A stretch of DNA of 64,000 bases, from the NCBI RefSeq assembly GCF_054482525.1, contig NZ_CM137006.1. One strand, written 5' to 3'. The position numbers are program-made. Positions 36,001-39,000 of the stretch are shown here, piece after piece (position 1 is the stretch's first letter; each line of letters begins with the position of its first letter).

Positions 36001-39000
36001 CCGGCGTGTACACCGGGTCCATCTGGTTTTGCATCTGCGCCACCGTCAGGCCGCACGATGCCAGCCAGCGTCGGCTTTCCTCACTCACCCGGTCAGCCAG
36101 GATTTCACTTTCCAGCCGGTCGAGCATCTGCACCGTGCCGGCGGGAATACCTCACTGTGCATAGGCAACTCACGCTATGAACGCTTCAGCTTATCAATAA
36201 CGGAAGTTATAATTTCATTGTCATCAAACTTGTACAACATAGTATCTAAAACAGGAAGTAGCGTTTTATCACCTAATTCACCCGCAGCTTCAATGATATC
36301 ATCATAAACAGTATTTTTTTTTAACTCATCGCATAAAACAGATAAAACCCTTTTATCTTTTCTGTAGGAAAGTCCGATTATTGCTTCAATACGGACTTCC
36401 TCATTTTTATCCTGAAGCATCTCCACAAAATAATCCCTAATATCACTATTATCATATTTATTGATATTTATTGCAAATGCGGCCCAGTTTCTGACATCTC
36501 CATTTGGATCTTTTAACAGATTAATCAATAGTGGAATTGTTTCTTTATCATTGATAACAGAAATAGCAAATGCCGTAGCACGTCTGACATTAGCCGATTT
36601 ATCAAAAGCAGTAATTTGAGATTGTTCTACTATTTTAGGTGAATAAATTGGGTTTTTCTTGCATCGCTGAGCAGTTGACTCGATTGCTGTAGCTCGAACG
36701 CAAGCACTTTTATCATTCAGTGCCATCTTTTTTAAAATATTAAAAACGCTATCTTCGCATTTTTTGCAAACTTTTATTTGCCCGAGTATAAATGCTCCTA
36801 TATCTCTACGGATATAATTTTTGTCAGCGCAGAATTCAATTGCCAATCTAACAGCGTCTTGCCCACCTCTTAGCTGCAATACTCTGGCAGATGAAATCCT
36901 TTTCAATGAATTGCGATTATCAAGTAAGCGAAATAATTCATCATCATTTAGTTTCTTACATTGATTGTATAAACCATACTCTTTACTTGCCTTTCTTTTC
37001 TGGTATGTATTCGACATTGCAGGAACCTCCATAAAGACTATCTTTTTCTATCGTTTGACTGTCTGGAGTCCTCCACCTACTCTGCCATCAGCACACACGA
37101 TGTTTGTTTATCCTTACATACTTATTTTCCGTGGCCAAAATTTAGAATTCTCCCGTCATTTTTGCCTATTTCTATAATAAAAACCCTACCAGCAATTTGG
37201 TCTGATTCAATGGTGCCTTCAACAATCCAACTTGTTGGTAATTCCATGATTTTGTATGGTTTTTCTTCTTCTTCTTCGGCATCATGTCCATAACGATTTT
37301 TAACATACATCTCAGCTAATTCCAATGCTATAGCTTTATTTTTGACCAAATTTCTAACGGTGTATTTCCCCTCACTTTCATACTTGCGCATTATAATAAT
37401 ATTATTACACTGCGCCCATGTGTTGTATGTAAAAATAAAGATACAATCACATAGGTTCTGAATAATATTTTCTTATACGTTGTCATGTATTTTGCAAACA
37501 TTAGGCAATCCTTTTCCATTTATTATATCTTTCCCATGATTATCTATTGCTTTAAAATTTTCACCTATTGACCTTGAATTACTACAATCACTTCCAGTGA
37601 AATCTGAGTTATTCAGAATAGCATTCATCAGAGCCGCATTGCGAAAGACAGCATTTCTAGTTGATGTATGTTGAATCATTACATTTCTTAAATGAGTTTT
37701 TTCAAATTTCGCCCCATCAAGACAATAACCATTGAGGGTGGCACGATGTAGATTCATCCCGCTAAAATCATATCCAGCAAGAGTGGTACTATCTATCTCA
37801 AGAAATTTATTGGTTATTAAAAATGCGATTCTTATCATCTGTTCCTCCAATCATCTAACTCCCGAAAAATTTGAAAACCAGAACCTCGCTTAGGCCTGTG
37901 TCCATACTACGTGGGTAGGATTATTCTACGTACTACGCTGTTGTCCCTTACGTGCTGATAAGCGCCAGCGGCAGGTTATTCGGTTTGCGTCGTTGAGTTC
38001 ACTACACTAAAACTCCGTGCCCATATAACCCAAGTCGGAGGCATGCCTTCCTCTGGTTCGTTCCATCTAAAATGTCTATACATAACATGGTTATTCAATT
38101 ATTTTTTCTTTGAGTTTATTCTCAATCCAGCTGTCTTTATACCTGATGAAAATTTGACATTCACCAATATTATCAATGTCACCAACATTTGTGTTTCGAA
38201 TTTGACCAACAGCAACTATAGTTGATTCAAAATATTCAACATTGACATTATCTGTAATTATTGAAATTATATAATCATCTGGAATAGAGCCATTAGGAGT
38301 TATATTGAAGAAACTAACATCTGAAAATACCAAATAACCATCTTCTAAGTCTTCATTATCATAAAAATTCCATTCTGTTGTACCATAGGCTATCCTTGAG
38401 ATTAAATTAACCTGAATTCTAATTTGTTTACTCCATAAATCAAATTCAATTTTTTATTGCTCGATCACCAAGATATATTCTATCAAACATATTACCCCCC
38501 TATTCTAAAAATACTCAGGCATTCCGCACATTATATCAGCCTCATCTTGATTGCTTCCCGTTTCCCAATACGGCGGCGCGGGGAGTCATAAAGGTAAGAA
38601 ATTTCCAGCAGTACGGCGTCCTATTGTTCACGGCGGTAATGCACCAGCCAGTATTGGCTATCGTAGTGATAACCGTGTAACCTGCCGCCGCATCGCGTAT
38701 CTAATGTTCATTCTTTTCCATAAACCGTCCGTACACATTGTGATAGTAAAAATACAATACATCTTCGCTGATGCGGTTATTCTGCTGCATGTGGGAAGCG
38801 CCGAATACTGCTCCCGGTATGGCCAGTAATTACTATTTAGTACGACGTTAGGGGGAGTCACTTAATCTCACAGATACTTCAAGTAACAGATGAAAATCGC
38901 TCCTGAAATGAAAAAGAAATTTTTTTGAATGTGTTCCTGTCAAATCAAGTGGTTTTTTCGTCGATATGTAGAGTCATATTGTACACAAAATAGTTACGAA

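Follow-up and report, generated by a model that had tools for sequence, protein, structure and literature searches.

Orphan rhs-CT/rhsI modules, which are found downstream of, and on the same strand as, an rhs gene of full length, are among the closest described systems to the locus analyzed here (Jackson et al., 2009, PMC2935791; Poole et al., 2011, PMC3150448). These modules consist of a fragment of rhs core, a toxin C-terminal domain (CT) and an immunity gene, and their CT/immunity pairs occur fused to full-length Rhs proteins in other strains. Core sequence with in-frame stops has been retained in the orphan of Y. pseudotuberculosis IP32953 (PMC3150448), and attached and dissociated cores were described as belonging to one clade (Jackson et al., 2009, PMC2935791). 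Among the immunity families, Imm-NTF2-2 has been paired with the toxin Tox-JAB-2 (Zhang et al., 2012, PMC3482391). H-rpt/ISEc1 elements, of the ISAs1 family, lie distally in E. coli Rhs elements (ybfL/ybfD in K-12 RhsC).

The window, that is, the whole 64,000-nt stretch of contig NZ_CM137006.1 that was analyzed, is by locus identity and annotation the E. coli rhsA locus. Its accessory array is headed by an intact, full-length RhsA of 1395 aa (40076..44263, minus strand), which matches NCBIfam RHS_core over positions 1-1261 of 1261 with 2622 bits and has no internal stops. The RhsA stop is overlapped by 4 nt by a 189-aa YbfC-like gene (39510..40079, minus strand) that is ~96% identical to ybfC in rhsC arrays and is presumed to be the immunity gene for the toxin tip attached to RhsA. 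Beyond a 168-bp gap lies an Imm-NTF2-2 immunity gene of 115 aa (38994..39341, minus strand; PF15631, Pfam E 7e-18), annotated by PGAP as 'NTF2 fold immunity protein', and from 38091 up to this gene no intact gene is present. This natural unit, 38091..38993, very probably represents the non-functional remains of an orphan rhs-CT/rhsI module, an Rhs 'tip' displaced to a place downstream of rhsA, and as a relic it is of a kind that is already known and ordinary. Like the published modules, it combines a core fragment, a toxin CT and an immunity gene, all on the minus strand and co-oriented with RhsA, 1.1-2 kb downstream of it.

A preliminary description had singled out 38340-38990 as an AT-rich, apparently decayed stretch with short open reading frames. 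The stretch is real, but its left boundary at 38340 cuts through a DUF6258 gene; likewise, AT-richness holds overall (39.2% GC vs 50.3% for the window) but not for the centre, 38558..38823, which at 49% GC is the GC-richest part of the accessory array. That intact genes are lacking was confirmed, the longest ORFs within 38340..38990 being one of 92 aa on the plus strand (38551..38829), antisense to the Rhs remnant, and one of 67 aa on the minus strand (38658..38861). Neither has a Pfam match, and both were rejected as genes, their database 'homologues' being only spurious ORF calls at the same locus (P0001, P0002). Scarcity of ORFs by itself would be within chance for AT-rich DNA; what goes beyond chance is that the pieces are significantly homologous to Rhs core, a toxin tail and DUF6258.

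The immunity gene of the relic is a pseudogenised DUF6258 (PF19772) orphan at 38091..38490 on the minus strand, whose reading frame is broken by a -2 shift within a homopolymer tract (38450..38455, minus strand; T6 on the plus strand, A6 in the gene). Reading from its start ATG (38490..38488), translation would run through a 14-codon ORF (38446..38490, minus strand; MFDRIYLGDRAIKN and stop) to a TGA at 38446..38448; the remainder lies in another frame, open for 117 codons from 38444 to 38091. The 14-codon ORF and the following 80-aa ORF of the preliminary description are real and are this one gene, the length of 80 aa reflecting only the first TTG of the second frame. In other strains intact DUF6258 is 133 aa long, and alignment with the intact copies in 13E0725 and 2014C-3655 reveals a sole lesion, A8 to A6, with the loss of 2 nt, which bears out the suspected frameshift in the cassette. 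Once the A-run is repaired, the window gene differs from the intact allele by 5 amino acids and is, like the intact alleles (89.3 bits vs a PF19772 cutoff of 25, residues 4-89), a clear member of the family. The PGAP 'DUF6258 family protein' of 101 aa with an ATA start in the window is a frameshift artefact.

Ahead of the gene lies a 14-nt toxin-immunity spacer (38491..38504, minus strand) with a G-rich ribosome-binding site (AATAGGGGGGTAAT), identical to the spacer between full-length RhsA and DUF6258 in 13E0725. This is preceded by the last 18 codons and stop of a polymorphic toxin cognate to DUF6258 (38505..38561, minus strand; TGSNQDEADIMCGMPEYF and stop), identical to the C-terminus of 13E0725 RhsA. 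Between the toxin stop and the start of the immunity gene there are 14 nt, just as in 13E0725, and the gene here is frameshifted. The comparison with related strains proposed earlier did uncover intact versions: 57 E. coli genomes carry a complete toxin-DUF6258 pair fused to full-length RhsA (at least 80% cover of the 13E0725 CT+DUF6258 query, annotated 'RHS element core protein | DUF6258'), and in these DUF6258 stands 14 nt behind a toxin-bearing RhsA, as RhsI immunity genes do. From this genomic context only, DUF6258 is assigned a putative role in immunity. Homologues of the intact CT domain lie behind RHS, PT-HINT and DUF4157 delivery domains, and searches of Pfam and NCBIfam gave no named family for it.

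The cassette had alternatively been suspected to be truncated, and indeed the last 18 codons of the toxin are what is left of it, joined to a decayed and divergent fragment of Rhs core with YD repeats (38558..38823, minus strand) that corresponds to RhsA residues ~919-1000. The homology can be seen directly in blastx against the window's own RhsA (E 2e-11, residues ~919-1000) and in NCBIfam RHS_core NF041261, where the fragment covers positions 937-1018 (E 6.9e-14), collinear with RhsA. An exhaustive HMMER search of a 1.8-billion library returned 45 matches with E down to 4e-10 against Rhs proteins, and the seven of these that were scanned against Pfam were all Rhs proteins; a word-indexed protein search with the repaired fragment gave nothing useful. 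A single frameshift interrupts the fragment at ~38683..38693, two stops stand in frame at 38701..38703 and 38621..38623, and its GC content has dropped to 49%. Unlike the single-clade pattern of Jackson et al. (2009), the scrap is foreign to the attached RhsA, with which it shares 57% aa and ~67% nt identity. Complete E. coli genomes contain no near relative of the scrap, and nothing in them, short pieces apart, exceeds 75% identity to its best relative, L010/P0019; the fragment is 75% identical to L010 in nucleotides, with a single 1-nt gap, and the comparison counts 21 GC to AT against 5 AT to GC substitutions in the fragment. P0019, the closest Rhs relative, sits on an 824-bp contig.

Homology to the core ends at residue ~1000 and passes directly into the last 18 toxin codons. 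At this deletion or recombination junction stands the hexamer AACGGG (38557..38562, minus strand), a 6-bp microhomology which a three-way comparison of the window, L010 and 13E0725 finds common to the Rhs-core side and the toxin-tail side. An orphan module would be recognized by a PxxxxDPxGL boundary followed by a complete CT domain; the window, unlike the published modules, has lost the boundary and ~90% of the toxin, and because the DPxGL region and ~160 CT residues of 13E0725 are missing, it is a relic rather than an intact orphan.

The 168-bp non-coding gap, whose coordinates (39342..39509) had been given exactly, was earlier proposed to be a remnant toxin fragment, and this proposal gains support from a 45-codon open tail of Tox-JAB-2/DUF4329 type (39351..39488, minus strand; INYSKKYVLNGYPGTPEGRFGKMDSDGKNIIYSECNVLPTTFEIR and stop) together with the pairing of Tox-JAB-2 and Imm-NTF2-2 (PMC3482391). 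The frame stops 9 nt short of the Imm-NTF2-2 start and aligns with the last ~26 positions of Pfam DUF4329 (86-111 of 116; E 0.18), although at 12.2 bits it falls below the family cutoff of 28.6; in BLASTP it is 52% identical over 25 aa to residues 592-616 of the 617-residue Rhs-DUF4329 protein P0006 (E 4e-7). Unlike Tox-JAB-2 itself, the window keeps just these 45 codons, and because the JAB catalytic motifs (E, H[ST]H, S, D) lie upstream of the surviving part and are all missing, the tail cannot be a toxin. A 43-aa ORF at 39338..39469, in ATGA overlap with the Imm-NTF2-2 start, was considered as the toxin tail and rejected, the homologous frame being 39351..39488. Imm-NTF2-2 belongs to the preceding orphan module as its immunity gene; together with the gap it invariably accompanies the YbfC module, and an intact toxin upstream of Imm-NTF2-2 was not found within E. 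coli.

The homologies, the lesions, the junction and the allele frequencies are direct observations; the order of events is inferred, and it is in line with the models published for orphan modules and for the displacement of C-termini (PMC3150448, PMC2935791). The toxin tip and DUF6258 would have come in joined to part of a GC-rich Rhs core of foreign origin, and the tip would have been pushed downstream as newer tips recombined onto rhsA. Approximately 1 kb, comprising the remaining core and nearly the whole toxin domain, was then probably deleted between two AACGGG hexamers, and the leftover core scrap may have gained its AT-biased substitutions, two stop codons and frameshift thereafter. 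Replication slippage in the A8 run at DUF6258 codons 13-15 would account for the 2 nt lost there, and the 168-bp gap may be a like relic, the tail of a Tox-JAB-2/DUF4329 toxin before its Imm-NTF2-2 gene. Given the frameshift, the stops and the deletion, no functional product is expected from the window copy, which is presumably not expressed.

Across ~845 genomes the relic stretch is 97-100% conserved. Such conservation, the movement of the stretch between rhsA and rhsC arrays together with the YbfC/Imm-NTF2-2 module, and the lack of prior annotation at 38491..38993 could be taken to mean that this interval has a non-coding function, for instance as an sRNA, as a promoter or leader that serves the orphans downstream, or as a site of recombination, and that its likeness to Rhs is incidental, a reading to which we give very little credence. 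The whole 2.5-kb module is conserved to the same degree, which recent shared ancestry explains. At E<=5, Rfam 15 yielded only two noise matches over 37800..39700 (E 2.8 and 3.6, far below gathering), promoter-like sites (7 vs 8.6 expected) and terminator-like sites (0 vs 1.1 expected) fell below expectation, and folding gave z-scores of -1.2 and +0.7; no sign of a discrete small gene or sRNA emerged from these scans, and a literature search turned up nothing relevant on an sRNA near ybfC/rhsC. In the ~170-bp AT-rich spacer that separates the Rhs remnant from the stop of Imm-NTF2-2 (38824..38993, 33.5% GC) no feature was detected, protein homology included. Moreover, IS3 interrupts the stretch in 2014C-3655, and ISEc1 has taken varying amounts of it, in part or whole, in K-12, OkiPb01695, 1504D004, EDL933 and BL21, so that the stretch is dispensable. 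In rhsC arrays ISEc1 adjoins the module with nested truncations at the equivalents of window positions 39468, 38894, 38548, ~38066 and 37922; unlike these ISEc1-bounded arrays, the rhsA array of the window is without ISEc1 here and runs on into further decayed orphans and a ~75-bp IS3 end fragment. A MITE-like insertion of 346 bp at 38548..38893, suggested by comparison of L006 and L007, was rejected because alignment showed one and the same ISEc1 end forming two distinct junctions, with neither inverted repeats nor target duplication, and the short direct repeats TACGGCGGCGCGGGGAGTCA and TACGACGTTAGGGGGAGTCA (two copies, 75% identity) were treated as chance.

The homopolymer tract of DUF6258 invites two further readings. 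Long-read assemblies err most often by indels in homopolymers, and the tract length might on that account be an artefact, with DUF6258 really intact in the window strain; this is exceedingly improbable, as 35 complete genomes share the identical A6 and 649 have A7, with the reference-quality EDL933 and BL21(DE3) among them, and the tract alleles follow sequence lineages. Alternatively, the A-run may be a functional switch through which the orphan DUF6258 is expressed at a low level or phase-variably, by transcriptional slippage or by a ribosomal -1 shift on A_AAA_AAA. Exact-probe matches among ~836 genomes do show that A8 (in frame, 146), A7 (649; 415+234) and A6 (35, as in the window) coexist in the species, with A7 in ~78% of genomes that have the DUF6258 gene and in 234/234 genomes with a ~7% divergent allele, but clonal sampling (O157:H7, B strains) confounds these counts. 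The A7 run forms the slippery heptamer A_AAA_AAA, where a -1 slip, ribosomal or transcriptional, would restore the exact intact 133-aa sequence, and the frameshifted alleles are otherwise all open, including one with 27 codon differences, of which the 11 synonymous to 16 non-synonymous do not make the ratio of a long-neutral sequence. Against the switch, the A6 of the window requires a +1 or -2 shift with a TGA two codons past the run, the cognate toxin has been deleted from the same genome in these arrays, and A8 and A7 alleles can be otherwise identical (2014C-3655 and BL21 have zero other codon differences in DUF6258), so the frameshift can be very recent and the open frame is therefore explained without a switch. 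We consider the switch unlikely, and even under it the window allele would be a truly null state; if it were true, orphan immunity genes that look dead would continue to protect, at a low level or switchably, against competitors' Rhs toxins.

Three observations count against the relic reading. Conservation of the stretch slightly exceeds that of the genes on either side (97.8-99.1% vs 96-97.4%), the mismatch counts being small; the core remnant falls outside the clade of the attached RhsA; and DUF6258 is free of lesions outside the A-run even in the allele with 27 codon differences; this otherwise open frame could reflect a frameshift that is recent or recurrent, or ongoing expression.

The importance of the relic beyond annotation is small. 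Some 500 bp that are unannotated in ~845 complete E. coli genomes are identifiable pseudogene fragments, namely a scrap of foreign Rhs core and a toxin tail, and together they furnish a small, clear example of Rhs array erosion by microhomology deletion, homopolymer slippage, AT-biased decay and nested deletions adjacent to insertion sequences. One dissociated core fragment outside the clade of the attached gene is documented, and the genomic context lends added support to DUF6258 as an RhsI-type immunity family and to the pairing of Tox-JAB-2 with Imm-NTF2-2.

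The region around the decayed stretch (38091..38993) is the rhsA locus of E. coli, with the gene order yibF, RhsA, accessory array and yibH-yibI-mtlA; in a database sequence search, 37800..39600 was 100% identical to PCN033 and two other genomes, and PCN033 differs from the window at 7 of 17,801 positions. Downstream of RhsA (40076..44263, minus strand; 1395 aa, intact in the window and aligned over the full length of the NCBIfam RHS_core model), the minus-strand array comprises a YbfC-like gene of 189 aa (39510..40079) that overlaps the RhsA stop, a gap of exactly the 168 bp preliminarily described (39342..39509), an Imm-NTF2-2 gene (38994..39341; Pfam E 7e-18), approximately 500 unannotated bases and a gene named 'DUF6258 family protein' by PGAP. 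In the comparison at 40736..40776 and 42817, RhsA of PCN033 stops at codon 1172 and the window copy is intact; five of the seven differences are grouped in a segment of 41 bp, a clustering suggestive of gene conversion over a short tract between copies of rhs.

As the preliminary description held, 38340..38990 contains only short ORFs. None of them matches a family, and the 14-codon ORF (38446..38490; MFDRIYLGDRAIKN and a stop), after which a longer ORF runs in a different frame, is genuine. Its proposal of a frameshifted or truncated toxin/immunity cassette is borne out in both respects, by an A-run frameshift in the DUF6258 gene and by a toxin cut to 18 codons and a stop, and the intact versions to be sought in related strains exist for DUF6258: a 133-aa protein (89 bits against PF19772) is encoded in 13E0725, 14 nt behind full-length RhsA at the same locus, and in 2014C-3655, inside an rhsC array. 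DNA alignment to these copies reveals that an A8 run at codons 13-15 has become 2 nt shorter in the window (now T6 on the plus strand, 38450..38455; gene on the minus strand) and 1 nt shorter in BL21 and EDL933. Since restoring the run opens all 133 codons in the window, BL21 and an approximately 7%-divergent allele (266917_2), the A-run is the sole lesion. The 101-aa PGAP CDS in PCN033 (window 38091..38393; 8292..8594 of that locus), which starts at an ATA codon, is a by-product of this frameshift; the 103-aa and 73-aa calls in BL21 and EDL933 are likewise artefacts of it, with a further stop in EDL933. In addition, the window gene (38091..38490) resembles the BL21/13E0725 allele over its 5' half and the divergent 266917_2 allele over its 3' half, a mosaic structure suggestive of recombination among array copies.

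Exact-probe matches among the approximately 836 genomes carrying the 5' end of the gene assign A8 to 146, A7 to 415 plus 234 (the latter of the divergent allele type, for which no genome has an A8 version) and A6 to 35. That the run is a slippage site still permitting DUF6258 expression is improbable: in the A7 allele it does form A_AAA_AAA, where a -1 slip would give back the exact protein, but the A6 allele of the window meets a TGA two codons past the run and would need a +1 or -2 shift, and the absence of any other codon difference between A8 and A7 alleles (2014C-3655 versus BL21) means that the frameshift may be no more than a recent event.

A 14-nt G-rich spacer, the same in the window and 13E0725, lies before the DUF6258 start and is itself preceded by the toxin tail (38505..38561, minus strand; 18 codons, TGSNQDEADIMCGMPEYF, and a stop), which is identical to the 13E0725 RhsA C-terminus and at whose start homology to that toxin ends. 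The whole toxin-immunity pair occurs in only 57 genomes; in profile searches the intact toxin domain matched no named Pfam or NCBIfam family, and copies 58-70% identical to it follow RHS, PT-HINT (PF07591) and DUF4157 (PF13699) delivery domains, the pattern that a polymorphic-toxin tip would show. Beyond the tail, comparison of 38491..38993 with the window itself by tblastx and blastx showed 38558..38790 (minus) to be collinear with RhsA residues 919-1000 (combined E 2e-11), one segment at 57% over 42 aa and another, in a different frame, at 39% over 28 aa. Once its frame is repaired, the translated remnant aligns to positions 937-1018 of the 1261 in NCBIfam RHS_core (E 6.9e-14), and HMMER, run exhaustively over 1.8 billion representatives, matched it to 45 proteins, of which all seven scanned against Pfam are Rhs proteins; with the matched proteins as tblastn queries, homology reaches approximately 38823 and stops there. 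The remnant has lost 1 nt near 38683..38693 and contains two stop codons (38701..38703 and 38621..38623), each aligned to Gln of its closest relative, P0019, a protein on an 824-bp contig (L010) without usable context (66% aa and 75% nt identity; 58% GC). No complete E. coli genome matches the lineage of P0019 at more than 75% identity. Relative to L010, 21 substitutions run from G/C to A/T and 5 in the opposite direction, an excess that marks the unconstrained decay of a GC-rich gene. At its end the remnant reads ...GGG AAA CGG (G K R), and because the hexamer AACGGG (38557..38562) is common to it and the 13E0725 toxin exactly where toxin homology begins, a microhomology-mediated deletion is indicated, which would have taken the rest of the core and approximately 160 toxin codons. 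The stretch described as AT-rich is so overall (39% GC; flanks 27-34%), although its centre (38558..38823) has 49%. The spacer at 38824..38993 (33.5% GC) yielded no Rfam family, no protein similarity, promoter- and terminator-like sites at or under shuffle expectation and RNA folding z-scores of -1.2 and +0.7.

The 168-bp gap, suspected from the outset of holding a remnant toxin fragment, contains a 45-codon open frame (39351..39488, minus) ending 9 nt before the Imm-NTF2-2 ATG. Its match to the last 26 positions of Pfam DUF4329 is below threshold (E 0.18), and it aligns with residues 592-616 of 617 of the Rhs-DUF4329 protein P0006 (52% identity, E 4e-7). Given these alignments, the listing of Imm-NTF2-2 as immunity partner of Tox-JAB-2, with which DUF4329 is equated (Zhang et al., 2012, PMC3482391), and the lack of an intact toxin upstream of Imm-NTF2-2 in any E. 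coli genome searched, the gap reads as a toxin-tail relic too. Only window-type arrays encode Imm-NTF2-2 as a 115-aa protein with a signal-like N-terminus; the rhsC-array copies (L003, L004, L006) are probably damaged as well, being called at 66-100 aa with two gap columns in the alignment.

Between the RhsA tip and 37922, the window array shares a 2.5-kb module, at approximately 96.7% identity, with rhsC arrays such as those of BL21 and O157:H7. The unannotated 439 bp of this module are single-copy, 97-100% identical and without annotation in all of approximately 845 genomes; judged on only a handful of mismatches, they are if anything better conserved (97.8-99.1%) than the genes on either side (96-97.4%). 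ISEc1 (H-rpt) adjoins the module at five nested positions in the rhsC arrays of five strains, equivalent to window 39468 (K-12), 38894 (OkiPb01695), 38548 (1504D004), approximately 38066 (EDL933) and 37922 (BL21), as if IS-adjacent deletions were eating the array progressively from its distal end. In 2014C-3655 an IS3-family element is inserted within the Rhs-core remnant (approximately 6337/7593 of that locus; window approximately 38722..38728); the DUF6258 gene of that strain is intact (A8). From the nested junctions and this insertion it follows that the stretch is dispensable and under erosion. Most of the accessory array appears pseudogenised. Toward yibH, 34900..36400 (5004..6357 of the PCN033 locus) holds a frameshifted Imm57 gene, a tlde1-domain gene and a frameshifted partial RHS fragment. 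A 54-bp Rhs-core piece (37922..37975; 92.6% to K-12 rhsC) heads the next decayed orphan, with pentapeptide-repeat toxin fragments (approximately 37473..37838) and a frameshifted NTF2-fold immunity gene (approximately 37122..37501). An approximately 75-bp IS3 terminal-repeat piece (37860..37934), a solo IS end within the array, approximately 91% identical to IS3 ends on approximately 690 plasmids, is the source of the 670 plasmid hits of the initial search.

Earlier work describes displaced Rhs tips, orphan rhs-CT/rhsI modules and their relics well (Jackson et al., 2009, PMC2935791; Poole et al., 2011, PMC3150448), and retained core sequence with an in-frame stop has been mentioned (Poole et al., 2011, PMC3150448). 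The window relic fits the orphan rhs-CT/rhsI class; it is not an intact orphan, since it lacks the DPxGL boundary and the toxin and its immunity gene carries a frameshift. Its dissociated core scrap, not of the attached gene's clade, departs from the generalisation of Jackson et al. In summary, the original observation is confirmed, and its interpretation is supported and gains in precision: this is an ordinary relic of an already known kind, of low interest beyond better annotation.
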